DNA of 64,000 nt from an uncultured Chitinophagaceae bacterium. Lineage in GTDB: Bacteria; Bacteroidota; Bacteroidia; Chitinophagales; Chitinophagaceae. How positions within the stretch are numbered: the first letter of the stretch is position 1; each line of letters starts with the position of its first letter. The notes under the pieces were generated by a model. It made no database searches. It had not been told where the DNA came from and worked only from the letters and a program-made list of their open reading frames with translations. Location of the stretch: positions 3,879,868 to 3,943,867 of the forward strand of contig OY970398.1 of NCBI GenBank assembly GCA_963720535.1, read 5' to 3'. Shown piece by piece: positions 6,324 through 31,233 of this stretch. The position numbers and the translations under genes are program-made.

Positions 6324-6491
6324 CCAATTTTGCGGTTTCATCAAAATATAATTCCTATTTAATTGGTAGACTTCAAAAAAAAGACCTTATTATGACAAAA
6401 TAAAATACGAACGTTAGTTTGTAAGTTGATTCCAACTTGGGGTTCATACACAAATACCTTACGATATTCAGTGGATTACTCATTCAGATTT

Positions 6492-7880: not shown

Positions 7881-7883
7881 AGA

Positions 7884-9692: not shown

Positions 9693-9785
9693 CTGGTTAC
9701 TATTTATATTTTCGCAATTTTTCTTTTATTTTTATTGACACCTTGTGTAGCCAGAAGAATAATACAATTCTGGCCAGTGTATTTA

Positions 9786-11294
9786 TCAATCTACTACAAT
9801 GGTTACAACGCTTTTTGCAGGAATAACCAACTCTTTAAACGTTGCATTATTCTTTGCAAGACTTGCAGTTGCAGTTGTTGTGTACTTAATTATTTTTTTG
9901 TTGGAGAAGGTATTCGACTGGTTAGTTGCTACTAATTTTTCTTCAGCAGACTCATTTACAAAAACCAATATTAAGGTCCCTTTTCTAACATCTTTATAGG
10001 CTGAAACCAATAGGCTCTTGGAATTGATACCAACCTCAATTCTTTTCATTCCCGGCCTTACAAATCGGCTGTAATTACCCATGGCCCAGAGCATTTTACT
10101 GTCTGAAAAATTGCTATCGGTTTTACTTTTGCCTATATATATCAACCCATCCTTATAATCGTATGCTGAAATTGATGTCCACCATTGCCAGGCAGATGCA
10201 TTTGCAATGGCAAGATCTTCATACATCACTTTTGCCACATACAAAGCGGCATTCATACCAGTGTCTTTTTTATTGCCATTTATTTCCCCGTCATTTTCGC
10301 CTAAAATACAATATTCAGATTGCCAGTATTGCAGCCCTTTTATTTTGGAAATGCTGTTTTTGACCTCTGCTCTTAATGCTATAGCTTTTGCAAAAGGGGA
10401 AGTAGAAAAATAGCTGTGCGATGCGATGATTCGGCTAACATTTGGCAGGTTGCCAATATAATATGGCGATGCAGGGTTAAAGAAGTTATGCACCTGTTCA
10501 TCCTTATTCTTTTTATCATTGGCAAATAATAAATATTTGAGATCACCAGATTCTGCAACCAATAATTTTGTGTTTAGTTTTTTTTTCTGAAAACTTTTGC
10601 TGAATGTTTTTATAAGTGTACTAATTTGTTCATTGGTATATGGACAACCTTCCTGTCCGCCATCGCTCCAATCCCATTGCGGTTCATTAACAGGGCTTAT
10701 ATAGTCGAGTGTGATGCCAGTAGATTTTTTAATTTCTATGATGGCATTTACTGCATAATCTGCAAAATTTTGGTAATTATTACTATCAATATTGCATTGC
10801 CCTTTGTTGGAAAACGCTTTCCCATTTTTTGTAAGCAGCACAGGCGGGCTGTTAAAAAATCCAAGAAATTGCTGTACGCCTCTTTTTTTAGCTGCTGATA
10901 AAAACCAATTTTGCGCTGTAACTTTTTTGCTTTCTGAGTTTTGTTTAGCAGTGGTTAAGGCTGCCCTGCGCCACTCGTCTTTAATGCCACTTTCATTGCC
11001 TTGTTCTGCACTTCCTGCGCCGAGGTTATAACGCCATAAACTGAGACCAATACCTTTGGGATTGCCATTTAATAAAGTATCCATGCTAAAAAGTAAGTCT
11101 GCCATTGCATTCTTTTTTTCGTTGGGCCAATTGCCCACAAACTGGCAACTCCATGCATCCGATGCTCCAAAATTTTGAATGGTTTGATAGGTTTTTGATT
11201 CATCAATATGTAGCATGATTTTTTGCTGTGCAGTTGCCGTAAAAAAAATTAAGCATGCTGTTATAGAAAGGGTAAAGCGAATTGGTTTAAACAT
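9786..11294 (-). CDS. Glycoside hydrolase family 30 (subfamily unresolved; beta-1,6-galactanase/glucanase-like), secreted
   Basis: 502 aa with a signal peptide. Motifs seen: QNFGASDAWS, acid/base SPVNEPQW, and nucleophile region YWQSEYC. First gene of the GH30-GH35-GH27 string (gaps of 93 and 3 bp). Confidence 0.8.
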   Translation of the reverse strand: MFKPIRFTLSITACLIFFTATAQQKIMLHIDESKTYQTIQNFGASDAWSCQFVGNWPNEKKNAMADLLFSMDTLLNGNPKGIGLSLWRYNLGAGSAEQGNESGIKDEWRRAALTTAKQNSESKKVTAQNWFLSAAKKRGVQQFLGFFNSPPVLLTKNGKAFSNKGQCNIDSNNYQNFADYAVNAIIEIKKSTGITLDYISPVNEPQWDWSDGGQEGCPYTNEQISTLIKTFSKSFQKKKLNTKLLVAESGDLKYLLFANDKKNKDEQVHNFFNPASPYYIGNLPNVSRIIASHSYFSTSPFAKAIALRAEVKNSISKIKGLQYWQSEYCILGENDGEINGNKKDTGMNAALYVAKVMYEDLAIANASAWQWWTSISAYDYKDGLIYIGKSKTDSNFSDSKMLWAMGNYSRFVRPGMKRIEVGINSKSLLVSAYKDVRKGTLILVFVNESAEEKLVATNQSNTFSNKKIIKYTTTATASLAKNNATFKELVIPAKSVVTIVVD

Positions 11295-11791: not shown

Positions 11792-11865
11792 TAATAAGCG
11801 TAAAAATGACATTTTTAATTCTGTATAACAAATTAATAAGCGTAAAAATGACATTTTTTAATTCT
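11792..11865. repeat. Direct duplication of a 31/32-nt element, each copy carrying a 17-bp palindrome
   Basis: TAATAAGCGTAAAAATGACATTTTTAATTCT occurs at 11792-11822 and again, with one extra T, at 11834-11865 (start-to-start 42 bp). The core TAAAAATG-A-CATTTTTA (11801-11817) is a perfect palindrome. Confidence 0.85.
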
Positions 11866-11920: not shown

Positions 11921-11940
11921 TTGTGCACACGATTGCACAA
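11921..11940. promoter_or_regulatory. 20-bp palindrome TTGTGCA-CACGAT-TGCACAA; candidate LacI-family operator at the regulator gene start
   Basis: Perfect 7-bp inverted arms with a 6-bp spacer containing CG. It overlaps the first possible TTG start codons of the LacI-type gene. Confidence 0.4.
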
Positions 11941-13039
11941 CTTGCTATTAAAAACCACCATACAAGATATCGCCCGGGAGTTAAACCTCACTTCGGGAAC
12001 CGTTTCAAGAGCATTGAATGATTATCCCCGTATAAGTACTGAAACAAAACTGTTGGTAAAGGCAAAAGCGATAGAACTCAATTATCAGCGAAACAGGGTT
12101 GCTTCATCTCTTCGGTCTGGAAAATCCTATACCATCGGAGTAATGATTCCAAGTGCTCAGATGAACTTTTTTGGATCCGTAGTACATGGAATTGAGATGA
12201 TGGCTAGTAGTAAAGGGTATAATATTTTATTGTACCAGACAGAGGAGACTACCCTGCTTGAAAAAAAGGGGATTGATGCATTCCTCGGAGCTAGGGTGGA
12301 TGGTATATTGGCAGCCCTTGCTAAAGAAACAACTGATTTTAGCCATTTCAAGGATTTATCTAGCAATTCAAAAAACGTACCCTTGGTTTTATTTGATAGA
12401 ACCATTGCCGATTTCAAAGTGCCGTCTGTAGTAATTGATGATTACCAGGGCGCTTTTATGGCAACAGAGCATTTAATAAAAAATGGGTATAAAAGAATCG
12501 CCCATGTTTCTGGCCCCCAACTGATATCAAGTTTTAAGAATCGACAGCAAGGATATTTAGACGCTTTGAAAGCAAATAATATGGCAATTGACAAAAAGCT
12601 AATTTATTCGGGCGATATATCTATTCAATGCGGAATTGAATCGGTGGAATATTTTTTTGGTTTGAAAAAAATTCCTGATGCAGTTTTTGCAGTAGAAGAT
12701 TACTCAGCTCTAGGAGTAATCAAAGGATTAAAAGAAAGGAAAGTAAATATGCCAAGAGATTTTGGAGTGATCGGTTTTGCCAACGAAAATTTTGGGGAAC
12801 ACATTAGTCCTTCCCTTTCTACAGTAGATCAACAAACGGTAGAAATGGGTAAAAAAGCAGTCGGCCTTTTGATTGAAATAATTAGTAAAGGCACAAAGAA
12901 GCCTAGTAAAAAAATCGAGAATATTGTTTTGCAGCCGCTATTAATCAATAGAGAATCCACTGCACATAGCACCTCATCAAAATTAAAAACTAAAAAAGTT
13001 AATTCCGGAATTTTCCAAACACAAAAACATAAGAAATAG
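11921..13039 (+). CDS. LacI-family transcriptional regulator (5-prime end uncertain; non-ATG start required)
   Basis: HTH reads TIQDIARELNLTSGTVSRALN, followed by a periplasmic-binding-protein-like sugar-binding core. There is no in-frame ATG upstream of the HTH. Possible TTG starts are at 11921, 11933 and 11942; 11942 gives MLLKTTIQDIA, the usual spacing for this family. Confidence 0.85.
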   Translation: MCTRLHNLLLKTTIQDIARELNLTSGTVSRALNDYPRISTETKLLVKAKAIELNYQRNRVASSLRSGKSYTIGVMIPSAQMNFFGSVVHGIEMMASSKGYNILLYQTEETTLLEKKGIDAFLGARVDGILAALAKETTDFSHFKDLSSNSKNVPLVLFDRTIADFKVPSVVIDDYQGAFMATEHLIKNGYKRIAHVSGPQLISSFKNRQQGYLDALKANNMAIDKKLIYSGDISIQCGIESVEYFFGLKKIPDAVFAVEDYSALGVIKGLKERKVNMPRDFGVIGFANENFGEHISPSLSTVDQQTVEMGKKAVGLLIEIISKGTKKPSKKIENIVLQPLLINRESTAHSTSSKLKTKKVNSGIFQTQKHKK

Positions 13040-13129
13040 CACTATGAATGAATCTTAAATTAAATTCTATCCTTAGAATTACGCAACCAAATCAACCAAT
13101 TCAACAACGAAATTTAAAAGCTTGCTACT

Positions 13130-16100
13130 ATGACTAAAAACATTAAACGTGTAAGGAAATTAGGCTCCTGGCTAGTTGTATTGTTCAGTTTATTACTGAC
13201 GATATCGGCACAGGCAAACAATCCATGGGCCAGCGGCCAGGATAAAAAAATAACCGGTAAAGTTACTGATGAAAATGGGAACCCATTAGCATCAGTATCT
13301 ATTTCACTCAAGGGTACAAAACTGGGGGTTCTAACAGACCAAAATGGTGTCTTTAGCATTTCTGTACCATCTGAGAAATCAGTTCTTGTAATATCACTTA
13401 TCGGATATGAAAAACAAGAATTAAGTGTTGGTAGTATCACTGAAATTGGTGTAAAACTAAAAGCTGCTGTTGGCAAACTCGATGATGTAGTAGTGGTAGG
13501 TTATGCCACTCAAAGGAAAGTTACTCTTACTGGTGCTGTTGCAGTTGTAAGAGGATCTGATCTTGCTAAATCACCTGCTACCAATCTTTCCAACTCTATT
13601 GCTGGTCGTTTACCGGGTGTAGTTGCTGTTAACGCAAGTGGAGAACCAGGATATGATGGATCTGCCATCCGTATTCGTGGGTCGAATACTTTGGGAAATA
13701 ACGATGCATTGATTGTTATTGACGGTGTACCAGCGCGTGCTGGAGGTTTTGACCGTTTAAATCCAATGGACATTGAAAGTATGTCTGTACTTAAAGATGC
13801 TTCTGGCGCTATTTATGGTGCAAGGGCTGCTAATGGTGTAATATTAATTACTACCAAGCGTGGTAAAACTGGCAAGCCTGAACTTTCCTATAGTCATAAT
13901 CAGGGCTGGGCTGCTCCTACTGTATTACCAAAAATGACAAATGCCATACAATACGCTACTATGGCGAATGAAATTGAATTATACAAACTTCCTGCGGCTG
14001 AATGGAGTGCAGCTAGTGCAGCATTTAAATCTACTGGAGTTTACAATTCTGTTGGAGGAAATGTAGTAACGGCTCCTTTTCTTCCAGACGATTTCAAAAA
14101 ATTTGCAGATGGTTCTGATCCATGGGGTCACCCCAATACAGACTGGTTTGCAACTGTGTTGAAACCATGGTCTCCACAATCGAAAGATAACCTTCAACTT
14201 TCAGGTGGAACAGAAAATGTAAAATACCTCGCTTCTTTGGGTTACCAAAACCAAGATGGATATTATAAAAATTCTGCTACCGGATACAAGCAGTATGATA
14301 TGCGCTTTAACTTAGACGCCAAAGTGAATAAATACATCAATACTTCTTTGGGTATTGTTGCTCGTCAAGAAAATCGTTTCTTCCCTACTAAAGGTGCAGG
14401 ATCTATTTTTAGAATGTTAATGAGAGGCTATCCTACTAAAAACGCCATCTGGCCAAATGGTCAAGCTGCTCCAGATATTGAGAATGGAGAACAGCCCGTG
14501 GTTATTACAACCAATCAAACAGGGTACGATAAAGATACCCGTTATTATTACCAAACCAATGCTAAGATCGAGATAACGAATCCCTGGGTTAAAGGTTTGA
14601 AATTTACCTTGAATGCTTCTTTGGATAAAACCATTCAGGAAACTAAAACATGGGTAAAACCTTGGTATATCTATAACTGGAGTGGATTTGCAGCAGATGG
14701 TGTTACACCAATCATGACAGCAGTTAAAAAAGGACCTGCTACCCAAGCTACTCTTAATCAGGGTAACACCGATCAGTTGAACGTAATGTTGGAAGCTGTT
14801 GGATCTTATGAGCATTCTTTCAAAGACCATAACTTCACAGTGCTTGCGGGTGTAACTAAAGAAACTTCTAACGCCAGTTATTTTAATGCCTACCGTCAAT
14901 ATTATGCTTCTACAGCAATTGATCAAATATTTGCAGGTGGATTGAGTAACCAGCAAACAGGTGGTGCTTCTTGGGAGCGCGCACGTTTAAATTATTTTGG
15001 ACGTGTTGGGTATAATTATAAAGAAAAGTATATTGCCGAGTTCCTTTGGCGCGAAGATGGTTCTTACATGTTTCCAGAAGCTAAACGCTTTGGTTTCTTT
15101 CCAGGGGTAACAGCCGGTTGGAGAATTTCAGAAGAAAATTTCTTCAAAAACAATGTAAAATTCATCAATACCTTGAAAGTTCGTGGTTCGTGGGGCCAGT
15201 TGGGTAATGATCAGGTTTATTTCAATGGTAGTTTAAGAGAGTATGATTATCTGCCAACCTATGCTTACGGTAGCTATGTAGCCGGAAACTCGGTAGTTCA
15301 AACTTTAAGAGAAAACGGTATCCCTAATCCAAATCTTACATGGGAAGTTGCCAATAATTTCAACTTAGGTTTAGAAGGTTCAGTTTTGGATAGCAAATTA
15401 ACATTTGAATTTGATGTATTCCAAAATCATCGGTCAAACATATTATGGAGAAGAAATGCCTCTATTCCTACTTCTACAGGTTTAACATTGCCAGCAGAAA
15501 ATATTGGTAAAGTTGACAACAAAGGATGGGAGTTTAAAGTAGGTTATAATAATGCAATAGGCGATCTGCATTACAATGTAGGTATCAATGGTGGATTTTC
15601 TAAAAATAAAATTGTATTCTGGGATGAAACTCCAGGAAGACCTGATTATCAATTGTCTACCGGAAAGCCAATGCCTAGTAATGTAAATAATCCAGATGAC
15701 CAGTTGGTTTATATTTATGATGGTGTATTTAAAGATGCTGCTGAGGTTGCTGCCAATAAACTTGATTATAGTGGTGTAGGTGGCGCTGGAAAACTTTTCC
15801 CCGGTAGTATGAAGTTTAAGGATGTAAACGGTGACGGAAAAATAGATGGCAACGATAGAGTTAGAAGTGATAAAAACCAGACACCAACTTTCCAAGGAGG
15901 TTTAACCATTGGATTGCAGTACAAAAGCTTTGATCTTAATCTGCTGCTCCAAGCTTCTACGGGAGCGCAACTGTTTATACAAACAGAAACAGGTACTATT
16001 GGTAATTTTCTACAGGATACCTATGATCATCGCTGGACTGTTGATAATCCAAGTTCTGTATATCCTCGTACGGTTGATAGAAATAATCAGTACTTCTCAA

Positions 16101-16345
16101 ATCGTAATACTTTTTACATGCAAAGTTCCGACTATATACGTCTTAAAAACTTTGAGCTAGGTTATACACTTCCTTCAAGCATTGGAAAAAAGTATGGTAT
16201 CAGTCGTTTAAGGATATATATAAATGGCTTGAATTTGGCTACTTGGACGAATCTGAAAGTTTATGACCCAGAATCGCAAAATAGCGACGGACATTATTAT
16301 CCGCAGTCTAAAATTATCAATACAGGCATAAACATAACCTTCTAA
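13130..16345 (+). CDS. SusC/RagA-family TonB-dependent outer-membrane transporter
   Basis: 1071 aa. Signal peptide, then a carboxypeptidase-regulatory-like domain (ITGKVTDENGNPLASVSISLKGT), a plug region (VVVVGYATQRKVTLTGAV...IRIRGSNTLGNNDALIVIDG), and a barrel ending INITF. There is no N-terminal STN/anti-sigma extension. Confidence 0.92.
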   Translation: MTKNIKRVRKLGSWLVVLFSLLLTISAQANNPWASGQDKKITGKVTDENGNPLASVSISLKGTKLGVLTDQNGVFSISVPSEKSVLVISLIGYEKQELSVGSITEIGVKLKAAVGKLDDVVVVGYATQRKVTLTGAVAVVRGSDLAKSPATNLSNSIAGRLPGVVAVNASGEPGYDGSAIRIRGSNTLGNNDALIVIDGVPARAGGFDRLNPMDIESMSVLKDASGAIYGARAANGVILITTKRGKTGKPELSYSHNQGWAAPTVLPKMTNAIQYATMANEIELYKLPAAEWSAASAAFKSTGVYNSVGGNVVTAPFLPDDFKKFADGSDPWGHPNTDWFATVLKPWSPQSKDNLQLSGGTENVKYLASLGYQNQDGYYKNSATGYKQYDMRFNLDAKVNKYINTSLGIVARQENRFFPTKGAGSIFRMLMRGYPTKNAIWPNGQAAPDIENGEQPVVITTNQTGYDKDTRYYYQTNAKIEITNPWVKGLKFTLNASLDKTIQETKTWVKPWYIYNWSGFAADGVTPIMTAVKKGPATQATLNQGNTDQLNVMLEAVGSYEHSFKDHNFTVLAGVTKETSNASYFNAYRQYYASTAIDQIFAGGLSNQQTGGASWERARLNYFGRVGYNYKEKYIAEFLWREDGSYMFPEAKRFGFFPGVTAGWRISEENFFKNNVKFINTLKVRGSWGQLGNDQVYFNGSLREYDYLPTYAYGSYVAGNSVVQTLRENGIPNPNLTWEVANNFNLGLEGSVLDSKLTFEFDVFQNHRSNILWRRNASIPTSTGLTLPAENIGKVDNKGWEFKVGYNNAIGDLHYNVGINGGFSKNKIVFWDETPGRPDYQLSTGKPMPSNVNNPDDQLVYIYDGVFKDAAEVAANKLDYSGVGGAGKLFPGSMKFKDVNGDGKIDGNDRVRSDKNQTPTFQGGLTIGLQYKSFDLNLLLQASTGAQLFIQTETGTIGNFLQDTYDHRWTVDNPSSVYPRTVDRNNQYFSNRNTFYMQSSDYIRLKNFELGYTLPSSIGKKYGISRLRIYINGLNLATWTNLKVYDPESQNSDGHYYPQSKIINTGINITF

Positions 16346-16355
16346 ATTTATATTA

Positions 16356-18203
16356 ATGAAAAAAGTAATCAAAAAAATAATAATCCCACTGTGTTTAGTG
16401 ATCTTGGTTACATCATGTAAGAAAGATTTTCTGAATACACAACCGCTCGATAAAGCGGCGGCAGCATCCACGTGGTCGGATGCCTCACTTTCTGAAATGT
16501 TTGTTACTGATCTATATAATGGCATTCAAGAAGGGTACATGCAACAAAACAGTTTGGATAACCAGACCGATAACTGCCTCTTCAATTTCGGAAGTCAAAT
16601 TATCATGGAAGCCGGTATTAGCCCTTCTAATGTTGGAGGTATACCAGGTACCATGGAATGGGGAAATATGTATGGAAAAATAAGGGCAGCCAATCTGGCC
16701 TTAGAAAACCTATCTACATCTTCCATCGATGCAAGTGTGATTGCCCGATTAAAGGGAGAAAGTTATTTCATGCGTGGTTATTACTATAATCAATTGCTTA
16801 GGTATTATGGTGGCGTTCCAATCATTAAGTCTTCTTATCTTTTGAGTGCTCCAGACTTTTCTATGGCTAGAAGTACTTATGCTGCATGTGTAACATCAAT
16901 CGTTAGTGATTTGGATTCAGCAGCTTTATTGCTGGATGGTAAAACAATGGCTCTTGGACGTGCTTCAAAAACTGCGGCATTGGCACTTAAATCAAGGGTA
17001 TTGATTAATGCTGCTAGTGATTTGCACGATAAAACTAAGGCTGCGGCAAAATCAGCTCTTTTAGGTGGATTTGCAAACTATGAATTATTGGGTTATACAA
17101 GCGGGGATCAAGCTTCACGTTGGACAGCAGCAAAGGCTGCTGCCAAAGCTGTATTAGATTTAGGAGACTTTGGCTACAAATTAGATCTGGCAGCACCTCA
17201 ATCTAAAGCTGATGCTATTGCAGATCACATTAAACTAGGTTTAGCTAGAGGTGGTGCAGAAAAAGAAGTTTTTTTTGCTAAATATTATATCAATGCATCT
17301 ACTGATGATTGGGGCGCTTGGTATCCAAGAAACAACATGCCCAATGGCTACCATGGCTGGTCTTCTACAGAACCTACCCAAAACTTGGTAGACAATTATG
17401 AAATGATGGATGGTACAAAGTTTGATTGGAGTAATCCAACTCAAGCAGCTGCCCCTTATGAAAACAGAGATCCGCGTTTTTATGCTGATATTTTTTATGA
17501 TGGCTGCCCATGGAAACCTCGTACAACCGATGGAGCTGCAATTGATCCTTATGGAGAATTACAGTTTGGTACCTACGAAACTGGTACCGCAGGAGCAGGA
17601 GTACCATATTTTGGACTTGATACAAGGAACAGTAATATCGAAAACTGGAATGGTACAAGAACAGGATATGTAATTAAAAAATTCATGGATCCCAATCCGG
17701 CTATTGTTGACATGAACCAAAAACAAGAGGTTCCAACAGTACTGCTTAGACAAACTGAAGTCGTGTTTAATTACATTGAAGCTTGTCTTGAAACAGGTGA
17801 CGAAGCCACTGCTAGAACATGGCTTAACAAAATCCGCTTTAGGGCAGGTTTGCCTGCCACAACTTTAACTGGTAGTGACTTAGTAAATCTGTACCGCAAT
17901 GAACGTAATCTTGAAATGCTTGTAGAAGACCAACGCTTTTTTGATGCGAGGCGCTGGATGATTGCACCAACAACATTTGGTCAAAAAGTAAGGATTATGG
18001 TTATTAATGGAAAACTGAAAGCTGGAAAAACCGTAGCAACTTACCGCTATAACAAAGACAATTACGATTACACTTACCATGTACAAAATATTGAATCAGG
18101 TGTAGAGAATCGCGCTTGGAACGATAAGATTTACTTTCCTCCAATTAGATTGGATGAAATGAATAAGAATAAAAAACTTATTCAAAATCCAGGGTATCAA
18201 TAG
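16356..18203 (+). CDS. SusD/RagB-family nutrient-binding outer-membrane lipoprotein
   Basis: 615 aa with lipobox LVTSC. Starts 10 bp after SusC and shows SusD-like helical repeat sequence (YFMRGYYYNQLLRYYGGVP). Confidence 0.92.
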   Translation: MKKVIKKIIIPLCLVILVTSCKKDFLNTQPLDKAAAASTWSDASLSEMFVTDLYNGIQEGYMQQNSLDNQTDNCLFNFGSQIIMEAGISPSNVGGIPGTMEWGNMYGKIRAANLALENLSTSSIDASVIARLKGESYFMRGYYYNQLLRYYGGVPIIKSSYLLSAPDFSMARSTYAACVTSIVSDLDSAALLLDGKTMALGRASKTAALALKSRVLINAASDLHDKTKAAAKSALLGGFANYELLGYTSGDQASRWTAAKAAAKAVLDLGDFGYKLDLAAPQSKADAIADHIKLGLARGGAEKEVFFAKYYINASTDDWGAWYPRNNMPNGYHGWSSTEPTQNLVDNYEMMDGTKFDWSNPTQAAAPYENRDPRFYADIFYDGCPWKPRTTDGAAIDPYGELQFGTYETGTAGAGVPYFGLDTRNSNIENWNGTRTGYVIKKFMDPNPAIVDMNQKQEVPTVLLRQTEVVFNYIEACLETGDEATARTWLNKIRFRAGLPATTLTGSDLVNLYRNERNLEMLVEDQRFFDARRWMIAPTTFGQKVRIMVINGKLKAGKTVATYRYNKDNYDYTYHVQNIESGVENRAWNDKIYFPPIRLDEMNKNKKLIQNPGYQ

Positions 18204-18229
18204 TAATTAATGACTTAATTTTTTCAACT

Positions 18230-18259
18230 GCGCCGGATATTTTCCGGCGTAGTTTTTTG
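18230..18259 (+). terminator. Rho-independent terminator-like hairpin after susD
   Basis: GCGCCGGA-TATTT-TCCGGCGT followed by AGTTTTTTG. Confidence 0.6.
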
Positions 18260-18380
18260 TTTAAGCAAGTTGTTTTATGACTAACTAATTTCAAACGTTT
18301 AATCACTAAATAGTGTTAAATAAAAAACTATATTCGTGTTAGTAGTTTTCCATTTTTTTTACATTTAAATACCAGCTTCA

Positions 18381-21300
18381 TTGACTACAAAAATTATCCG
18401 AAACTGTATTATTGCTTCCCTCACATTAGTGATAAGTGCCTGCCATAATAGTGAAACTAAAACTGAAAATTCAGCTACAGATTCTGCACATCTTTTTACG
18501 TTGTTGCCAACAGACAGTACACATATTGATTTCAACAACTCACTCGCAGAGGGGCTAAATACCAACGTATTACTATATGAATATTTTTACAATGGCGGTG
18601 GTGTAGCTGTGGGAGATCTTAACAATGATGGGTTGCAGGATATTTATTTTTCAAGCAATCTGGGTGATAATAAATTATATCTTAACAAGGGTAAAATGCA
18701 GTTTCAGGATATAACGGTTGCAGCCAACGTGCAGTCAAGACCTGGATCTTGGAAGACAGGCGTAACAATTGCAGATGTGAATGGAGATGGTAAAGAAGAT
18801 ATCTATGTTTGTTATTCAGGCAAAATGCCTTCTTTTAAGCGAGCCAATCAACTTTTTATTAATCAGGGGAATGACCAGAGTGGTGTACCAACTTTTTTGG
18901 AGCAGGCTAGTCAATATGGTCTTGCCGATACCAGTTATTCCACACAGGCTTTCTTTTTTGATTTTGATAGAGATGGCGATTTGGACATGTTTTTACTCAA
19001 TCATAATCCTAACAATCTGCCTTTATTAGACGAATCCAGCACATTGGCAATTCTTGCAAAAAGAGATGTTAATACCGGGGTGAAATTATTTAGGAATGAC
19101 AATAATCATTTTGTAGATATAACTTCAACATCTGGGTTAAGTAGTTCTGCATTAACCTATGGCTTGGGTGCTGGGATTGCAGATATTAATTTGGATGGAT
19201 GGCCCGATATTTATATTTCTAACGATTATGGCGTACCCGATTATTTGTACATAAATAATAAAAAAGGCGGTTTTACAGATCAGCTTGCATCTAGTATGGG
19301 GCATATCAGTCTATCTTCAATGGGTAACAGCGTAGCAGATATTAACAATGATTGTCTTCCTGATATTTTCACCTTAGATATGTTGCCCGAAGATAACAAT
19401 CGACAAAAATTATTGTTTGCTCCAGATAATTATGAAAAATTTGATCTGGGTTTGCGTAGGGGTTTTCATCATCAATACATGCGCAATATGCTTCAGCTCA
19501 ATAATGGTGATGGCACTTTTAGTGAAATTGGTCAGTTATCCGGCATATCCAACACCGATTGGAGTTGGTCGCCGTTATTTGCCGACTTAGACAATGATGG
19601 CTGGAAGGATTTGTATATTAGTAATGGCTATCTACGAGATTTTACTAACATGGATTTTTTGAAATATAAATACGATTTTATTCAAAAAAAGGGACGCTTA
19701 CAAAGAGAGGAAGTACTAGATATCATAAAACAGATGCCATCTTCAAATGTGGTAAATTATACTTACCAAAACAACCACGATTTAACTTTTAAAGATGTTG
19801 GCAAACAGTGGGGGCTAACCGTGGCTTCTAACAGCAATGGGGCAGCTTATGCAGATTTAGATAATGATGGCGATCTCGATTTGGTAGTAAATAATATCAA
19901 TCAACCTGCTTTCATTTATCGTAATAACGGAGAAAACCTAACTAAAAATCATTTCTTACAAATTAAGTTAGCGGGAGCAAATAAAAATACAGATGGCTAT
20001 GGAGCTATCATCACTATTTATCAGAAAAATAATAAGCAATGTCTGGAACAAATGCCAGCCAGAGGATTTCAATCTACTGTATCGGCAGTATTACATTTTG
20101 GATTAGGTAAAGAATCATTAATCGACTCGCTTCGAATTGTATGGCTTGGAGGTAAAGAGCAAGTAATTACCCAGATCAAATCAGACCAGCTAATTACTTT
20201 GAAAGAAACTGAGGCTACCCTGCATTATAAAAAACCCAATCCTGAGAAATCTATTTTTAAGGAAATAAGTAGTCCTTTAAAATTTGCAAGTGCAGAAAAT
20301 CATATCAATGATTTTAAGCGCCAACCATTGTTGATTAATCCACTTTCATTTAACGGTCCGTGTTTGGTAAAAGGGGATGTAAATGGAGATGGCTTGGAAG
20401 ATGTATTTGCCGGTGGAGGTAGCGGAAAGCCCGGTGCACTTTACATTCAACAAAAAAATGGGCAGTTCATTAAAAAATCACCCTCCGTATTTGAAGCAGA
20501 CTCTTTGGGCGAAGATGCGGATGCATTGTTTGTTGATGTTAACAATGATGGTTTTATTGATTTATATGTTGTAGGTGGCGGGTATCATAATTATTTAGTG
20601 GGAGACGCTTTATTTCAAGATAGGCTCTATCTAAATGATGGGAAGGGAAACTTCTCCAAAGCGAATCATTCATTGCCCGAAATGAAGGGAAGTAAAAGTT
20701 GTGTACGGGCTGGAGATGTAAATGGAGATGGATTTCTTGATCTGTTTGTGGGGGGTAGAAATATTCCTGGTCAATATCCTGAAACCCCTCAAAGTTATTT
20801 ATTGATTAATGATGGGAAAGGAAATTTTACAGATAAAATTGAATTGCTGGCACCACAGTTAAAAAATGTTGGCATGGTAACTGATGCAGCGTGGATTGAT
20901 ATCAATCATGATAAAAAATTGGACCTTATTGTAGTAGGTGAATGGATGCCGATAATGGCATTTGTGAATATTAATGGAAAGCTGGAAAATAAAACTAGCA
21001 ATTATTTTGATAAGGAATATAGCGGTTGGTGGAATAAATTGTTGATTGCAGATCTAAACGGAGATGGTATTCAGGATTTGGTGATAGGCAATATGGGCTT
21101 GAACAGCCAGTGCAAAGCCAGCGATACTGAGCCTGCAGAAATGTATTATAAAGATTTTGACAATAATGGATCGGTTGATCCGATTCTTTGTTTTTATATT
21201 CAGCACAAAAGTTATCCCTATGTAACCCGCGATGAACTTTTGGAACAAATAAGTACCATGCGCACAAAGTTTACCGATTACAAATCTTATGCAAACGCAA

Positions 21301-21716
21301 CGTTGAAGGACATTTTTTCGGCCGACGAAATGAAAGATGTAAAACATCTTCAGGTCAATGAACTCAGCACTGCTTATTTTGAAGGTGGTGCGGATGGAAA
21401 ATTTCATAAAAAAAGCCTTCCTATTCAGGCACAATTTTCGCCGGTATTTACGATCAATACAATTGACTATGATAAAGATGGAAAATTGGATCTGATTTTA
21501 TGCGGAAATATTAACCAAGCTCGTATACGCTTTGGAAATTATGATGCTAATTATGGTATTCTTCTGAAGGGTGATGGCAAAGGCCATTTCAGTTATATTA
21601 GCCAACAACAGTCAGGCTTTCAGATTTGGGGAGATGTTCGCAGTGTACTCAGTATAAAGAACAACTTGTTGTTTGGAATCAACCAACAGCCAATCAAAGC
21701 ATATCAAATTAGGTAA
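18381..21716 (+). CDS. FG-GAP/VCBS-repeat lipoprotein with a central UnbV/ASPIC domain (CRTAC1-like, two predicted seven-bladed propellers)
   Basis: 1111 aa with a TTG start and lipobox LVISAC. There are 14 D-x-N/D-x-D-G-x-x-D calcium-loop motifs, 7 before and 7 after an UnbV/ASPIC-like segment (GYGAIITIYQKNN...VLHFGLGKESLIDSLRIVWLGGKEQV). Confidence 0.8.
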   Translation: MTTKIIRNCIIASLTLVISACHNSETKTENSATDSAHLFTLLPTDSTHIDFNNSLAEGLNTNVLLYEYFYNGGGVAVGDLNNDGLQDIYFSSNLGDNKLYLNKGKMQFQDITVAANVQSRPGSWKTGVTIADVNGDGKEDIYVCYSGKMPSFKRANQLFINQGNDQSGVPTFLEQASQYGLADTSYSTQAFFFDFDRDGDLDMFLLNHNPNNLPLLDESSTLAILAKRDVNTGVKLFRNDNNHFVDITSTSGLSSSALTYGLGAGIADINLDGWPDIYISNDYGVPDYLYINNKKGGFTDQLASSMGHISLSSMGNSVADINNDCLPDIFTLDMLPEDNNRQKLLFAPDNYEKFDLGLRRGFHHQYMRNMLQLNNGDGTFSEIGQLSGISNTDWSWSPLFADLDNDGWKDLYISNGYLRDFTNMDFLKYKYDFIQKKGRLQREEVLDIIKQMPSSNVVNYTYQNNHDLTFKDVGKQWGLTVASNSNGAAYADLDNDGDLDLVVNNINQPAFIYRNNGENLTKNHFLQIKLAGANKNTDGYGAIITIYQKNNKQCLEQMPARGFQSTVSAVLHFGLGKESLIDSLRIVWLGGKEQVITQIKSDQLITLKETEATLHYKKPNPEKSIFKEISSPLKFASAENHINDFKRQPLLINPLSFNGPCLVKGDVNGDGLEDVFAGGGSGKPGALYIQQKNGQFIKKSPSVFEADSLGEDADALFVDVNNDGFIDLYVVGGGYHNYLVGDALFQDRLYLNDGKGNFSKANHSLPEMKGSKSCVRAGDVNGDGFLDLFVGGRNIPGQYPETPQSYLLINDGKGNFTDKIELLAPQLKNVGMVTDAAWIDINHDKKLDLIVVGEWMPIMAFVNINGKLENKTSNYFDKEYSGWWNKLLIADLNGDGIQDLVIGNMGLNSQCKASDTEPAEMYYKDFDNNGSVDPILCFYIQHKSYPYVTRDELLEQISTMRTKFTDYKSYANATLKDIFSADEMKDVKHLQVNELSTAYFEGGADGKFHKKSLPIQAQFSPVFTINTIDYDKDGKLDLILCGNINQARIRFGNYDANYGILLKGDGKGHFSYISQQQSGFQIWGDVRSVLSIKNNLLFGINQQPIKAYQIR

Positions 21717-21787
21717 GTTGATGAATTGAATTATAACGGCTATCATTTATTATACTTTATTAAAATAATTAAACACGAAAAAAAATT

Positions 21788-23122
21788 GTGAATTTGAAAA
21801 ATAAAAAAAACGGGGGATTTCCCAGTTTACAGGTTGTATCAATTTTATTGATTCTTTTGTTCTCCTGTACCCCAAAAAAACAACCCACTGTATTCAGTAA
21901 TAAAGAGCTGGAAAAGGTCATTTTTACCATGACTGATATTATGCTACAGGACATTACGAATCCTCCCTTGGCAGCTAGATTTTTTTCTTATGCCTGTTTA
22001 GCGGGTTACGAAGTGGTAACGCAGTATGATACTACATTTAAAACGATGTACGGTAAATTAAATGGCTATCCTACAATGAAAATGCAACCGGTAGGTCATC
22101 CTTATTCCAATCAATTAAGTGCATTGCTTGCAATGATGGAAACCGCAAAAAAATTACAGCCTTCTGGGGCTTTAATGGGGTTGTATGAACAAAAATTTAT
22201 TGACTCATGTAGTAAATTGGGATACAATGAAGACGTTATTAAAAATTCGCTGAATTATGCACAGGATGTGAGTAAGCAAATACTGGCTTATGCTAAGGCG
22301 GATGGATATAATAAAATCAGCAATTACCCAAGATACACAGCACATACGGAAGAAGGATATTGGTATCCAACACCTCCGGCTTTTATGGCTGCGGTAGAAC
22401 CCTACTTTAAAACAGTACGTCCATTTACGTTAGATTCTTCAGCTCAATTTAAGCCTTTGCCACCTATAGCATTTAGTGTTGTAAAAGGTTCTCCTTTCTA
22501 TAATTTAACGAAAGCTGTATATGAAGAGGGCACTAAATTAACAGAAAATCATCGATTGATTGCGTCTTTTTGGGACTGTAATCCGTTTGCTGTTCAGAAT
22601 GGCGGTCATCTTCAATATGGGTTAAAGAAAATTTCACCGGGGGCTCATTGGCTGGGTATTGCAGGCATTGCGTGTGCCAAGGCGAATAAGAGTTTTGAAG
22701 AAACTTTGCAAATTTACACTTCCGTTTCTATTGGTTTAATGGATGCTTTTATATGTTGCTGGGATGAAAAATACAGGAGCAATCGTGTTCGACCTGAAAC
22801 GGCTATTCGAAGATATATAGATCCCCAATGGGAGCCTCTATTACAAACGCCGCCCTTTCCGGAATATCTTAGCGGGCACTCTGTTGTTTCATCCGCATCC
22901 GCAGTAATTCTTACCCATTATTTTGGCGATAATTTTTCTTACACCGATAATGTTGAAGTTGTTTACGGATTACCTTCGAGAGACTTTCAGTCTTTTACTA
23001 AGGCAGCAGAAGAGGCGGGAGTTTCCAGATTTTATGGTGGAATACATTTTATGGATGCTATTACTAATGGGCAACTGCAGGGTGCAAAAGTAGGTAACTG
23101 GTTGCTCCAGAAAATTAAATAA
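21788..23122 (+). CDS. PAP2-superfamily / vanadium-dependent haloperoxidase-like lipoprotein
   Basis: 444 aa with a GTG start and lipobox LLFSC. All three PAP2/vanadate-site motifs are present: KYRSNRVRPE (K-x6-RP), LSGHS, and SRFYGGIHFMDA (SR-x5-H-x3-D). Confidence 0.75.
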   Translation: MNLKNKKNGGFPSLQVVSILLILLFSCTPKKQPTVFSNKELEKVIFTMTDIMLQDITNPPLAARFFSYACLAGYEVVTQYDTTFKTMYGKLNGYPTMKMQPVGHPYSNQLSALLAMMETAKKLQPSGALMGLYEQKFIDSCSKLGYNEDVIKNSLNYAQDVSKQILAYAKADGYNKISNYPRYTAHTEEGYWYPTPPAFMAAVEPYFKTVRPFTLDSSAQFKPLPPIAFSVVKGSPFYNLTKAVYEEGTKLTENHRLIASFWDCNPFAVQNGGHLQYGLKKISPGAHWLGIAGIACAKANKSFEETLQIYTSVSIGLMDAFICCWDEKYRSNRVRPETAIRRYIDPQWEPLLQTPPFPEYLSGHSVVSSASAVILTHYFGDNFSYTDNVEVVYGLPSRDFQSFTKAAEEAGVSRFYGGIHFMDAITNGQLQGAKVGNWLLQKIK

Positions 23123-23196: not shown

Positions 23197-24240
23197 TTAT
23201 TTTTTTTCTTTGTAATGAATTTCAGATAAGCCCTTTAAAGTAGTAGCGGCCATTTCGGGAGTAATATCCCTTTGCGGGTTACCCAGCATTTCATACCCTA
23301 CCATAAATTTTTTAACGGTTGCACTTCTTAATAAAGGGGGATAAAAATGCATATGCCAATGCCATTCAGAATGTTCACCATCGTTAACAGGCATTTGGTG
23401 CATACCAGCAGAATATGGGAAGGATATATTAAAAAGATTATCGTATTTGCTGGTCAACTTTTTTAAAATAGTAGCAAGTGATTTTTTTTCTGCTTCTGTA
23501 AACTGGATTATACTTTGGATATGTCGTTTGCTTACAATCATAGTTTCGTATGGCCACACAGCCCAGAATGGAACAAGTGCTGCAAAATGTTCGTTTTCAA
23601 TTACTACCCTTTCATTTTTTTCCAATTCCATTTTTAAATAATCACCTAACAAACTGGTATGATGCCTATCAAAATAGTCTTTCTGTTTTGCCGATTCTTT
23701 TGAAAGTTCCAAAGGAACAGAAGACGATGCCCATATTTGTCCGTGAGGATGCGGATTACTGCACCCCATCATTTCTCCTTTATTTTCAAAAATTTGAATA
23801 TATTTTATGGAAGAATTTTCGGATAATGCTGCAAATTCATTTTGCCAGAGTTCAATTACTTTTTCAATGGCAGCTTCACACATTAATGGCAAAGTAAGAC
23901 TATGGTCGGGAGAAAAACAGAGCACTTTACAAATCCCGCTTTCTGCTTTAGCTACCAATAAATCACCCTGATTTAGAATAGATTTTGGTGTGTCGGCTAA
24001 AAGCGAAGAAAAATCATTTGTGAAAGAATAGACATCCGTGTATTCTAGATTTTCAGTTCCATCTGAGCGTTTATTACCGGGACACAAATAACATGCTGGA
24101 TCGTAAGATGGCCGGTTATCTACGGGTAAGTCTTCTACTTTCCCCTGCCAAGGGCGTTTCATTCGATGTGGTGATACCAAAATCCAATCGCCAGTTAAAA
24201 TATTCAGCCTTGTGTGCGAATGTTCTTTTAAATCAAACAT
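23197..24240 (-). CDS. galT: Galactose-1-phosphate uridylyltransferase
   Basis: 347 aa. Zinc-site CYLCPGN and the active-site HPHGQ motif (NPHPHGQIWA). Confidence 0.9.
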   Translation of the reverse strand: MFDLKEHSHTRLNILTGDWILVSPHRMKRPWQGKVEDLPVDNRPSYDPACYLCPGNKRSDGTENLEYTDVYSFTNDFSSLLADTPKSILNQGDLLVAKAESGICKVLCFSPDHSLTLPLMCEAAIEKVIELWQNEFAALSENSSIKYIQIFENKGEMMGCSNPHPHGQIWASSSVPLELSKESAKQKDYFDRHHTSLLGDYLKMELEKNERVVIENEHFAALVPFWAVWPYETMIVSKRHIQSIIQFTEAEKKSLATILKKLTSKYDNLFNISFPYSAGMHQMPVNDGEHSEWHWHMHFYPPLLRSATVKKFMVGYEMLGNPQRDITPEMAATTLKGLSEIHYKEKK

Positions 24241-24362
24241 AATTTATCTAATAATTTCAGCTCCCTTCCCTTCGCAATTGAAGTCAAATAATGTTGTTAA
24301 ATGATCTGAATATGGCTTTTGAGGCCTATTATAGTGGATTGTTGAAACCTTAAGGATACCTA

Positions 24363-24619
24363 TTATTTAATTTTTAAGTACTTTTCGATATTCAATCTGT
24401 TAATACCCGATTTTTCAATTTTTTCAACACCTGTTTGTATGAGCGTATCATTACGAATAGTTACATTGAACTTAAATGTATTTCCTTCCCATTCTCGAGC
24501 AGTACAATAATCTAAGTTTTCGGTATAAGTGCTATCCACTAATGTATATGTTCCACCACTTAATTGGAATTACAAGAAAGCATAAAAATCAATACGCCAA
24601 ATAAGTAAGTAATTTTCAT
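24363..24619 (-). pseudogene. Frameshifted small lipoprotein gene (or an indel sequencing error)
   Basis: The minus strand reads MKITYLFGVLIFMLSCNSN* (signal peptide plus lipobox). It continues in another frame as FQLSGGTYTLVDSTYTENLDYCTAREWEGNTFKFNVTIRNDTLIQTGVEKIEKSGINRLNIEKYLKIK*. A single-nucleotide indel near 24560-24565 would fuse the two frames into an ~85-aa protein. Confidence 0.35.
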
Positions 24620-24638
24620 CCTGATTTATGGTATTGAA

Positions 24639-26198: not shown

Positions 26199-26224
26199 AA
26201 ACTTATATTTTATTTTGATTTGAT

Positions 26225-27388: not shown

Positions 27389-27403
27389 ATGGCTTATTTA
27401 TTT

Positions 27404-31232: not shown

Positions 31233-31233
31233 T

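Follow-up and report, generated by a model that had tools for sequence, protein, structure and literature searches.

What does a SusC/SusD pair import when the genes behind it encode a CRTAC1-like propeller lipoprotein and a haloperoxidase-type lipoprotein, and do these four proteins work together? The question was raised by a cassette in the window (the whole 64,000-nt stretch of DNA analysed) of a Ferruginibacter-like bacterium, a freshwater or soil member of Chitinophagaceae. SusC, SusD, the double-propeller lipoprotein (designated Prop), and the haloperoxidase-type lipoprotein would, tentatively and with a probability of roughly 0.4, belong to a single conserved Sus-like, utilisome-type module for uptake at the outer membrane, with the haloperoxidase as a Prop-dependent accessory. 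The locus was composed of the following features:

6492..11294, - strand: divergent flank with GH30 (9786-11294), GH35 beta-galactosidase (7884-9692), and GH27-like (6492-7880) genes (Pfam)
11921..11940, + strand: operator-like perfect palindrome TTGTGCA-N6-TGCACAA, found in perfect form nowhere else in the window
11942..13039 (probable CDS; listed ORF 11921-13039), + strand: LacI-family regulator (Pfam LacI HTH plus Peripla_BP_1/3)
13130..16345, + strand: SusC/RagA-type TonB-dependent transporter without STN (TIGR04056, CarbopepD_reg_2, Plug)
16356..18203, + strand: SusD-family lipoprotein (SusD_RagB E 2e-52, SusD-like_3)
18226..18264, + strand: hairpin plus T-run 3' of susD (12-bp stem, 7 G-C pairs, -20.9 kcal/mol)
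18381..21716, + strand: Prop, 1111-aa double-propeller lipoprotein (FG-GAP_3 in 10 stretches, UnbV_ASPIC 68 bits)
21788..23122, + strand: 444-aa lipoprotein, Zg-VIPO1-family homologue of vanadium-dependent haloperoxidases (PAP2; phmmer to 4CIT/4USZ)
23197..28579, - strand: convergent flank with galT (23197-24240), GH51 arabinofuranosidase (24639-26198), galM, and galK (Pfam)

The five + strand genes of the sequence-only reading, with their coordinates and gaps (90, 10, 177, and 71 bp from the LacI ORF through SusC, SusD, and Prop to the enzyme), matched the ORF positions exactly, and its domain assignments agreed with the profile searches, including a SusC (TIGR04056 at 898 bits vs. a cut-off of 368) that had CarbopepD_reg and Plug and lacked STN. 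As had been claimed, the surroundings of the window cassette contained no gene for an ECF sigma factor, an anti-sigma factor, or a hybrid two-component system. The description of the locus as lacking CAZymes held for the + strand but not overall: GH30, GH35, and GH27-like genes were divergent from the cassette, and GH51 and GH127 (31969-33981) genes lay downstream of it.

The LacI gene probably starts with the TTG at 11942 rather than at 11921: the listed ORF opens with the 20-nt perfect palindrome, and a similar motif preceded the called LacI start of a relative, L162, in which the motif GCGCAATCGTTTGCACA occupied the same position ahead of the LacI gene. The palindrome may be an operator. 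The regulator itself matched no NCBIfam equivalog above its cut-off. A LacI gene upstream of SusC was kept in the closest relatives L003 (67% identity), L162, and ERZ1426856, but there was no phylum-wide conservation among the best 80 of at least 597 relatives; cassette regulators differed among lineages (LacI, FecR with ECF sigma, and AraC), all being interchangeable PUL types. The LacI regulator was lineage-specific and outside the conserved unit.

At 18226-18254, the hairpin plus T-run was the strongest terminator-like site of the region, and it was no local accident: hairpins with T-runs were found in the SusD–Prop gaps of 30/45 related loci vs. 2/45 shuffled gaps. It is a conserved cassette feature and a candidate terminator, attenuator, or 3'-stabiliser.

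The 444-aa protein had a PAP2 domain and the corresponding motif set, but its earlier designation as PAP2-like was an understatement: homology to vanadium haloperoxidases was clear from its full-length alignment with Zg-VIPO1 (phmmer E 1.8e-118, 43% identity). Zg-VIPO1 was reportedly characterized by Fournier et al. (2014) as a vanadium-dependent iodoperoxidase of Zobellia galactanivorans. The supposed lack of any functional study was wrong for this enzyme family, two structures of Zg-VIPO1 (PDB 4CIT and 4USZ) having been solved. The vanadate ligands (Lys, Arg, Ser-Gly-His, Arg, and His) and the halide-pocket Trp and Phe were identical between the window enzyme and Zg-VIPO1, and K328, R335, S362-G363-H364, R414, H420, W325, and F357 were invariant in all 110 relatives examined. 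Of the two chemistries previously offered, peroxide/halide oxidation is favoured and dephosphorylation less so, because of the homology to a crystallised vanadium iodoperoxidase, the residues kept in the 110 relatives, and cassette neighbours containing no phosphate-scavenging, phosphate-starvation, or phosphate-transport genes.

Prop combined two FG-GAP propellers: the first formed a CRTAC1-like module with the UnbV_ASPIC domain, and the other lay C-terminal to this module. Prop contained 12 DxDxDG-type calcium loops. Its AlphaFold2 model (pLDDT 70.8) had murine CRTAC1 as the top Foldseek match (9etn, E 3e-23, TMt 0.68); the remaining listed matches were non-enzymatic multi-propeller or generic scaffolding propellers, with no enzyme fold among them apart from one weak GH74 double-propeller. 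In Flavobacteriaceae, two to three tandem Prop paralogues accompanied a single enzyme gene. On the strength of these matches, the calcium loops, and the tandem paralogues, Prop looks like a binder. Prop homologues were labelled 'enediyne biosynthesis protein E4' by JGI; to our knowledge, no defined biochemical activity could be transferred from either CRTAC1 or UnbV.

Prop and the enzyme had the lipoboxes LVISAC and LLFSC, respectively, and Cys21 of Prop was invariant in 30 homologues; the SusD lipobox was followed by KKDF. Acidic residues after the lipobox Cys are a mark of surface-exported Bacteroidota lipoproteins, but the tails of Prop and especially the enzyme (TPKKQP) were poor in them. 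The surface location earlier given to both lipoproteins was an assumption, and a periplasmic location is possible.

The synteny scan, in which each of 185,579 species was represented by one genome, gave at least 599 matched stretches, at least 597 of which encoded relatives; synteny was counted on the best 80 of these at least 597, from Chitinophagia, Cytophagia, Sphingobacteriia, Flavobacteriia, and Saprospiria, with the bias that loci were retrieved via short peptide patterns and ranked on similarity to the query. Among these best 80, a full-length Prop gene was located directly upstream of the enzyme gene on the same strand in 64/67 loci with enough upstream DNA, and SusC–SusD directly upstream of Prop in 41/56 (44/56 when a SusD in fragments or a single ORF in between was accepted). 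The order SusC–SusD–Prop–enzyme on one strand was kept with two different SusD families over the five classes, and median gaps were 11 nt (SusC–SusD), 98 nt (SusD–Prop), and about -1 nt (Prop–enzyme); in the window's clade, SusC orthologues of 50-82% identity occupied the equivalent position in most loci. The recurrence stated in the sequence-only reading was real and strong, and it makes Prop and the enzyme plausible partners of SusCD. This partnership was nevertheless one-sided: the enzyme was present at only 23/57 Prop loci and absent from the other 34, so that most Prop genes had no adjoining haloperoxidase. SusCD–Prop orthologues were found without the enzyme, for example in L099, suggesting that uptake would not depend on it.

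Prop–enzyme pairs without adjoining SusCD were also present: L020, L024, L043, and Zobellia sp. OII3, in which the gene for a protein identical to crystallised Zg-VIPO1 was preceded by three Prop genes in tandem, at spacings of 0-7 nt (10 kb seen). Where SusCD was not directly upstream, the vicinity often included SusD, CAZyme, or sugar-transporter genes (GH26, GH53, GH29, GH125, MFS, and SSF). A literature search found no paper linking the Prop or haloperoxidase families with SusC/SusD loci. Most carriers among the matches listed were soil or freshwater taxa, in whose habitats iodide is scarce; this scarcity counts against the module reading.

In this host, a glycan or glycoconjugate containing galactose is the most likely substrate. 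In the window's lineage, the cassette was accompanied by a LacI gene and galactosidases (GH2, GH36, and GH53): the closest relatives had the order GH2–LacI–SusC–SusD–Prop–enzyme, GH2 or GH36 followed the enzyme gene in six loci (L001, L003, L007, L016, L037, and L054), and GH53 was upstream of the cassette in L078 and L085. This galactosidase link was seen in 9/58 loci of the window's clade vs. 2/103 others (Fisher p = 0.002, the grouping being chosen after seeing the data). The window's own neighbours were GH30, GH35, GH27-like, and galTKM genes; homologues of the former three were absent from the best 80 of at least 597 related loci, and these genes thus represented lineage-specific context outside the core. 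Among the related loci surveyed, the core cassette usually contained no glycoside hydrolase, and the substrate may therefore be a non-glycan.

As the module is proposed to work, SusCD would be the gated importer, and Prop would join it in a physical complex as a multivalent, Ca2+-dependent substrate-capture partner, acting as a surface glycan-binding protein. The haloperoxidase would be an optional accessory dependent on Prop. Drawing on H2O2 and a halide (for the characterized relative, iodide), it might oxidise or halogenate the polymer after capture, or non-sugar groups attached to that polymer; consuming peroxide at the uptake site would be an equally possible role. No conserved H2O2-producing enzyme was found in the cassette neighbourhoods. 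Transcription in this host would probably start from a LacI-controlled promoter, and the conserved hairpin after susD may set a lower level of Prop and enzyme.

Four other explanations were weighed against this module. The enzyme might serve defence or halogen handling when cells meet algae, plants, or sunlit water, removing H2O2 by halide-assisted dismutation or oxidising iodide for uptake or detoxification; it would then not act on the imported substrate and would share only an address with SusCD–Prop, which can do without it. The sole characterized relatives were deposited (PDB 4CIT) and cited (PMC9296495, PMC5064120) as iodoperoxidases; a Zobellia vIPO was induced on a living brown alga among stress responses (PMC9296495), and Arenibacter C-21, with at least five Zg-VIPO homologues in its genome, took up iodine in an H2O2-dependent manner (PMC5064120). 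We consider this explanation unlikely, as it gives no obvious reason for the placement behind Prop in 96% of loci (best 80 of at least 597) with near-zero gaps or for nutrient-type regulators (LacI, ECF/anti-sigma), and iodide would be scarce for the mostly soil or freshwater carriers (among the matches listed). A PAP2-type phosphatase acting on a Prop-captured phospho-glycan or phospho-glycoconjugate, before or after import, appears improbable. The motifs K-X6-RP, SGH, and SR-X5-H are common to acid phosphatases and vanadium haloperoxidases, so that sequence alone is compatible with phosphate chemistry, and besides the Pfam PAP2 match, Asp at H+3 (D423) was found in 87/110 relatives and not in Zg-VIPO1. 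Against this, the homologues aligning over the full length, N-terminal helical domain (PF22778, precomputed annotation) included, were haloperoxidases, with no acid phosphatase among the PDB matches; the halide-site Trp and Phe were invariant, the neighbours included no phosphate-starvation or phosphate-transport genes, and Prop- or haloperoxidase-type proteins went unmentioned in papers about PusCD and phosphate scavenging by Bacteroidota.

Prop might itself be catalytic, either a Ca2+-dependent lyase or an oxidase making H2O2 for the haloperoxidase in a two-enzyme oxidative system. Propeller folds include polysaccharide lyases and copper-radical sugar oxidases, Prop homologues had invariant His, Cys, and Trp positions, and Prop and enzyme genes were tightly coupled; the Arenibacter model also pairs the haloperoxidase with an H2O2 source dependent on Ca2+ and sugar (PMC5064120). 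We nevertheless give this little credence: the listed Foldseek matches comprised CRTAC1, scaffolding propellers, and the weak GH74 with no lyase or oxidase, the Pfam search of Prop found no cofactor-binding domain, most Prop genes lacked a haloperoxidase partner, and the tandem paralogues were more like diversified binders. It is about as doubtful that no functional link exists, i.e., that the hairpin ends the SusCD operon and Prop–enzyme is an independent two-gene unit prone to PUL regions. The strength of the hairpin and the four loci without adjoining SusCD (for Zobellia, in the 10 kb seen) speak for such independence, but the one-strand order in 41-44/56 loci of five classes (best 80 of at least 597), its persistence with two SusD families, and the conservation of the post-susD hairpins, consistent with an attenuator, speak against it.

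Compared to known systems, the window enzyme and Zg-VIPO1 shared the length class, a lipoprotein-type N-terminus, and a gene position directly 3' of CRTAC1-like double-propeller genes, but they were only 43% identical, the window enzyme having Phe for Tyr263 (as in 96/110 relatives) and Asp at +3 after the vanadate-binding His; the Zobellia locus had three Props and no SusCD in the 10 kb seen, while the window had one Prop plus adjoining SusCD, and the hosts were a marine alga associate and a freshwater or soil Chitinophagaceae, respectively. PAP2 acid phosphatases shared the active-site motif set and Pfam PAP2 match with the window enzyme, but the overall architecture and closest relatives of the latter were haloperoxidases. 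CRTAC1 (ASPIC) of vertebrates, the best match of Prop by sequence and by structure, and UnbV/E4 of enediyne clusters likewise displayed an FG-GAP calcium-binding propeller followed by UnbV_ASPIC, while Prop was a bacterial lipoprotein with no EGF domain, a second propeller fused C-terminally, and a SusCD context. Arenibacter is a genus with Prop–Prop–haloperoxidase loci (the L080 enzyme being 74% identical to Zg-VIPO1), and iodine uptake in Arenibacter C-21 required H2O2, glucose, O2, and Ca2+, for which a membrane oxidase plus a haloperoxidase was proposed (PMC5064120); Prop is a predicted calcium-binding protein, but a link to the cassette is speculative, since this phenotype has no assigned gene and most cassette carriers were non-marine. 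Sus-like PULs/utilisomes shared with the window adjoining SusC/SusD, further downstream lipoproteins, a substrate-type regulator, and, in the window's lineage, CAZyme and sugar-catabolism neighbours, while the window cassette differed in having a core without glycoside hydrolase, lyase, or esterase and a haloperoxidase homologue as its accessory enzyme.

The window carried a cassette SusC–SusD–propeller protein–haloperoxidase homolog (13130-23122, plus strand), with a lacI gene directly upstream. The five plus-strand open reading frames proposed by the sequence-only reading were all recovered, with gaps of 90, 10, 177, and 71 nt and a convergent galT closing the block, and the gene identities assigned to them, including a SusC without STN, were upheld by Pfam and NCBIfam. 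The cassette and its surroundings displayed the following organization:

550-6274, minus strand: sulfate-assimilation block (PAPS-reductase-family, CysN-like GTPase, serine acetyltransferase-like, and cysteine synthase-like genes)
just upstream of the cassette, divergent: GH30, GH35, and GH27-like genes (Pfam)
11921-13039, plus strand: LacI-type regulator
13130-16345, plus strand: SusC
16356-18203, plus strand: SusD
18381-21716, plus strand: 1111-aa FG-GAP/UnbV_ASPIC lipoprotein (propeller protein, Prop)
21788-23122, plus strand: 444-aa lipoprotein (haloperoxidase homolog)
downstream of the cassette, convergent: galT, GH51, galM, and galK (Pfam), with an arabinose cluster containing GH127 beyond
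28793-37204, plus strand: arabinose block (NrtR/AraR-like NUDIX regulator, FGGY kinase, class II aldolase-family, GH127, araA, and SSF transporter genes)

SusC was a SusC/RagA-type TonB-dependent transporter (TIGR04056, 898.5 bits versus a cut-off of 368; TIGR04057 also matched) composed of CarbopepD_reg and Plug domains (Pfam and NCBIfam), and SusD (SusD_RagB, E 2e-52), located on the same strand 10 nt after susC, had only uncharacterized SusD homologs as its matches among solved structures. The supposed lack of CAZymes held for the cassette's own direction of transcription but not for the locus, given the divergent GH30, GH35, and GH27-like genes and the downstream GH51; the flanking arabinose block together with GH51 and galTKM placed the cassette in an arabinose/galactose utilization region. 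The window's nearest matches came from Ferruginibacter genomes and from metagenome bins, with 88-90% protein identity in L001 (L numbers denote related loci compared with the window); the source is therefore a freshwater- or soil-type Chitinophagaceae. The Rfam search of the window gave no RNA family.

The 444-aa protein belonged to the PAP2 superfamily (Pfam) and matched the solved structures 4CIT/4USZ, deposited as Zobellia galactanivorans vanadium-dependent haloperoxidase (Zg-VIPO1), with an E-value of 1.8e-118 by phmmer, residues 14-443 being aligned to residues 12-447 of 4CIT at 43% identity. Its solved-structure matches at E ≤ 0.001 were vanadium haloperoxidases, the weaker ones (to E 1) were NapH1, one more haloperoxidase, and one unrelated acetyltransferase, and no phosphatase was found among the matches searched to E 1; close homologs were named "vanadium-dependent haloperoxidase" by NCBI. 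The PAP2/vanadate motif set was present as proposed (KYRSNRVRP, LSGH, and SRFYGGIHFMD); set against the phosphatase motifs K-X6-RP, PSGH, and SR-X5-H-X3-D, which are common to haloperoxidases, it had Asp at +3, not +4. The vanadate-site residues K328, R335, S362-G363-H364, R414, and H420 were invariant in 110 relatives from the studied loci, and so were W325 and F357, which we take to be the second-shell Trp and Phe of the halide pocket; the position equivalent to Tyr263 of Zg-VIPO1 was occupied by Phe267 in the window and by Phe in most of these relatives (96 of 110; Tyr in 12). The AlphaFold2 model of the enzyme was poor (pLDDT 65, 13-sequence alignment) and was left aside. On these sequence grounds, the enzyme is assigned to the Zg-VIPO1-type haloperoxidase family, whose expected chemistry, following the general mechanism (PMC11871015), would be the H2O2-driven two-electron oxidation of halide to a hypohalous species; Zg-VIPO1 itself is cited as a vanadium iodoperoxidase in PMC9296495, PMC5064120, and PMC11871015.

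Prop contained ten FG-GAP_3 stretches (261 bits), twelve DxDxDG-type calcium loops, and a UnbV_ASPIC domain at residues 539-606 (68 bits versus a cut-off of 23.4), the first propeller and the UnbV_ASPIC domain making up a CRTAC1-like module to which a second propeller was joined C-terminally. CRTAC1 was its only solved relative by sequence (E 6e-16), and the AlphaFold2 model of Prop (pLDDT 70.8) gave murine CRTAC1 9etn_A as the best Foldseek match (E 3.1e-23 and target TM-score 0.68, covering the N-terminal module), followed by generic multi-propeller scaffolds; the earlier description as a CRTAC1-like double propeller stands. The 50 Foldseek matches listed for Prop included no PL11, PL22, PL24, PL42, or AA5-like catalytic propeller, and the sole enzyme among them was a weak GH74 double propeller. 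Homologs of Prop were named "VCBS repeat-containing protein" or "enediyne biosynthesis protein E4" in their sources. Second and third Prop paralogs of about 40% identity were located either beside the enzyme gene (downstream of it in L003, L007, L013, and L082) or in tandem (L053, L070, L080, L097, and L134), and the enzyme gene itself was duplicated in L008, L040, L041, and L049; the family is expanding through local duplication. Because of the lack of a convincing enzyme fold, the many calcium loops, and the tandem paralogs in some lineages, a binding role is more probable for Prop than a catalytic one.

An enzyme-anchored survey with one genome per species yielded at least 599 matched stretches, 597 of those listed encoding enzyme relatives; the best 80 of the at least 597 enzyme loci (42-88% identity, 10-kb flanks) were kept and covered Chitinophagia, Cytophagia, Sphingobacteriia, Flavobacteriia, and Saprospiria, the loci being located through short conserved peptides and then ordered by similarity, such that distant family members were under-sampled, and their genes being simple longest-ORF calls. 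In these best 80 loci, on which the gene-neighborhood check proposed earlier was thus run, a full-length Prop homolog was located directly upstream of the enzyme gene on the same strand in 64 of the 67 loci whose upstream DNA spanned at least 3.4 kb. Among the 56 loci with the full 10 kb, SusC plus SusD were recognizable by similarity to the window proteins in 29, SusC was followed by a SusD-like_2 protein (Pfam) of about 530 aa in 12 more, and SusD was fragmented or separated by one intervening ORF in another 3, giving SusCD in 41-44/56 loci. Some of the remaining loci had, one or two genes away, a SusD gene (L064, L070, and L080), a CAZyme [GH26-CBM35 in L014, GH53 in L078, GH29 in L072, and GH125 in L006], or sugar transporters. 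The median gaps were 11 nt for SusC–SusD, 98 nt for SusD–Prop, and about -1 nt for Prop–enzyme; the near-obligate place of the enzyme behind Prop, with overlapping or abutting frames, suggests that the two proteins are co-produced and cooperate.

A reciprocal Prop-anchored survey of metagenome contigs (80 loci kept) recovered the enzyme directly downstream in 23 of the 57 Prop loci with enough downstream DNA, so the expected co-occurrence of the three components was borne out when anchored on the enzyme but not when anchored on Prop. Prop genes without the enzyme still usually followed a SusC–SusD pair, as in the near-orthologous trio SusC–SusD–Prop of L099, and no gene family recurred beside Prop as a replacement in the enzyme-less loci of this survey. 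Prop therefore appeared as a general SusCD partner, with the enzyme as an optional addition almost never present without Prop. Genes 3′ of the enzyme were heterogeneous among loci, most of the 80 loci contained no CAZyme in the core, and L163 (74% identity) displayed the bare four genes, free of LacI or CAZyme. A Cu/Zn superoxide dismutase gene was located three genes upstream of SusC in L163 (1533-2162), a single case that may be due to chance; Cu/Zn superoxide dismutase produces H2O2. In L098 (70% Prop identity; no haloperoxidase gene), the five genes between susD and Prop (1119-7911) encoded two unknown proteins, a GT2, and two C39-peptidase proteins, of which one was a VKOR/thioredoxin fusion and the other an ABC exporter; the insertion, apparently of the bacteriocin-export type, was set aside as uninformative on function.

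The characterized enzyme Zg-VIPO1 obeys the same Prop-then-enzyme rule. A protein identical to the crystallized one was encoded in Zobellia sp. OII3 (L081, 3-11353), its gene coming fourth in a tight run behind three tandem FG-GAP/UnbV_ASPIC genes (1107, 1119, and 1101 aa; spacing 0-7 nt) and being followed by a GyrI-like gene; the Arenibacter palladensis ortholog (74% identity) followed two Prop genes, which were themselves preceded at a short distance by a SusD gene. A full-text literature search on ASPIC/UnbV/VCBS/FG-GAP proteins and haloperoxidases found no description of a Prop/haloperoxidase association with SusCD, and no statement of what Zg-VIPO1 and other bacterial vanadium iodoperoxidases do physiologically was found in the searchable literature. 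Phosphate scavenging was considered as a candidate theme and dropped; papers on PusCD and phosphatases mention none of these proteins.

The sequence-only reading had raised the hairpin plus T-run 3′ of susD as a sign that the last two genes might form a separate transcript. The feature (hairpin at 18226-18254) was indeed the strongest terminator-like site in the region, but it was no local oddity: a hairpin plus T-run was present in the SusD–Prop gap of 30/45 related loci versus 2/45 shuffled gaps, making it part of a conserved design. This fits an attenuator that keeps SusCD transcripts above the level of those of the downstream genes.

LacI was composed of an N-terminal PF00356 HTH and a periplasmic-binding-protein-like effector domain (PF00532/PF13377), and none of the NCBIfam equivalogs matched it at or above cut-off. 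The first 20 nt of the listed lacI ORF (11921-11940) formed a perfect palindrome TTGTGCA-N6-TGCACAA overlapping the listed TTG start, and a related motif, GCGCAATCGTTTGCACA, lay directly before the called lacI start of L162 (3450-3466; 85% Prop identity). The palindrome is likely a LacI operator serving autoregulation, and its position indicates that lacI probably starts at the TTG at 11942 rather than at 11921. A perfect 25-nt direct repeat TAATAAGCGTAAAAATGACATTTTT (11792-11816 and 11834-11858, 42-nt spacing) was found upstream of lacI, its core TAAGCGTAAAAA being also present upstream of lacI in L162 (about 3363-3374). The repeat is a candidate promoter or binding element. The window search for a LacI regulon gave one good palindrome copy only, the one preceding lacI, and neither the GH30 operon nor Prop could thus be shown to be co-regulated with lacI; a weaker copy with 3 mismatches (11691-11707) lay within a 53-codon ORF (11579-11740, minus strand) that Pfam aligned to the C-terminal end of the IstB_IS21 profile (positions 201-236 of 238; E 4.8e-8). 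The presence of this IS21 istB remnant in the 626-nt GH30–lacI spacer suggests that the junction with the GH30 operon was disturbed by a past insertion or rearrangement. Regulators 5′ of SusC varied by locus, being FecR-type anti-sigma, sigma-70-family, AraC, LacI, or none; the FecR-type anti-sigma was found in nine loci, in several of which SusC was about 100 residues longer.

A galactose theme recurred in the window's clade: (i) GH36 followed the cassette in L001 and L003; (ii) LacZ-type GH2 followed it in L007, L016, L037, and L054; and (iii) the two closest relatives with long contigs displayed the gene order GH2–LacI–SusC–SusD–Prop–enzyme. GH53 preceded the Prop gene in L078 and L085, and galM was nearby in L028 and L054. 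The theme was counted in 9/58 clade members versus 2/103 other loci (Fisher p = 0.002), an exploratory comparison since the grouping was post hoc, and the 80 genome loci contained no homologs of the window's GH30, GH35, GH27-like, GH51, galT, or galK. The lacI gene, the operator-like palindrome, and the galactosidase and Leloir-pathway neighbors together point to a galactose-containing substrate in this organism.

Both Prop and the enzyme had lipoprotein signal peptides at their N-termini. The residues following the lipobox Cys (HNSETK in Prop, encoded within 18381-18450, and TPKKQP in the enzyme, encoded within 21788-21880) were poor in acidic residues, the enzyme tail being basic, and only about 20% of the accessory-lipoprotein homologs had at least two Asp/Glu at +2 to +6; SusD displayed the usual K-K-D-F after its lipobox. 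Lipobox tails short of acidic residues argue against a confident cell-surface assignment in Bacteroidota, and surface exposure of Prop and the enzyme, as judged from these tails, should not be assumed.

The main reading, to which we give a probability of roughly 40%, is a utilisome-type SusCD uptake module with two dedicated lipoproteins, in which SusCD would be the uptake transporter, Prop its binding partner, and the enzyme the second dedicated lipoprotein; that the four genes make up one conserved functional unit is held with far more confidence than this mechanism. The hypohalous species could modify the captured polymer itself or phenolic or protein components of it, and in the lack of an acceptor the haloperoxidase reaction would just consume peroxide. 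A more specific version, an "oxidative utilisome" in which Prop would hold the polymer at SusCD and the haloperoxidase would cut, strip, or halogenate it using ambient H2O2 and halide, is doubtful at present. That SusCD is functionally unlinked to the downstream Prop–enzyme pair is highly improbable, as the gene order is conserved in five classes and with either of two SusD families.

The remaining alternatives concern the two lipoproteins. The enzyme might serve defense or the handling of iodine, with no bearing on the imported substrate. This would fit its dispensability for SusCD–Prop, the induction of a Zobellia vIPO on a living alga (PMC9296495), and Arenibacter iodine uptake, which requires H2O2 and Ca2+ (PMC5064120). 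We regard this as unlikely, since it would leave both the tight dependence on the Prop gene and the nutrient-type regulators unexplained. A phosphatase acting on a phospho-glycan, as suggested earlier, would be compatible with the sequence, the core motifs being common to acid phosphatases, but we rate it as very unlikely given solved-structure matches free of phosphatases and neighborhoods of related loci in which nothing suggests phosphate scavenging. For Prop as a catalytic propeller, for example a source of H2O2, the odds are similarly poor, the Foldseek matches listed including no lyase or oxidase.

SusCD loci are the main polymer-uptake route of Bacteroidota and are usually interpreted via CAZymes, and we know of no biochemical function for the CRTAC1/UnbV protein family. 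The CAZyme-free four-gene core, conserved in hundreds of species from five classes, joins such a transporter to a haloperoxidase-type enzyme and a CRTAC1/UnbV protein, and the near-obligate pairing with Prop, the Zobellia enzyme included, provides a concrete hypothesis for the physiology of vanadium iodoperoxidases. Action of the enzyme on imported material would amount to a new kind of substrate conditioning and would connect carbon cycling with the chemistry of halogens and vanadium; were its role purely defensive, the finding would still explain where, and beside what, such enzymes sit. Should the polymer indeed be oxidized while held at SusCD, the haloperoxidase step would replace or precede glycoside hydrolases, vanadium and iodine/bromine cycling would be tied to organic-carbon turnover in soils, lakes, and seas, and CRTAC1/UnbV-type proteins would gain a first defined role.

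The assembly of a CAZyme-free SusCD core, a CRTAC1-like propeller, and a haloperoxidase homolog appears undescribed in the searchable literature, and its parts are assignable by homology to known families: SusC, SusD, LacI, CRTAC1/UnbV, and Zg-VIPO1-type haloperoxidase. Compared to Sus-like PULs, the locus harbored SusC with an adjacent SusD, its CAZyme genes (GH30, GH35, GH27-like, and GH51) lying beside the cassette and none on the cassette strand; compared to Zg-VIPO1, the window enzyme differed in one second-shell residue, Tyr263 of Zg-VIPO1 being replaced by Phe267.
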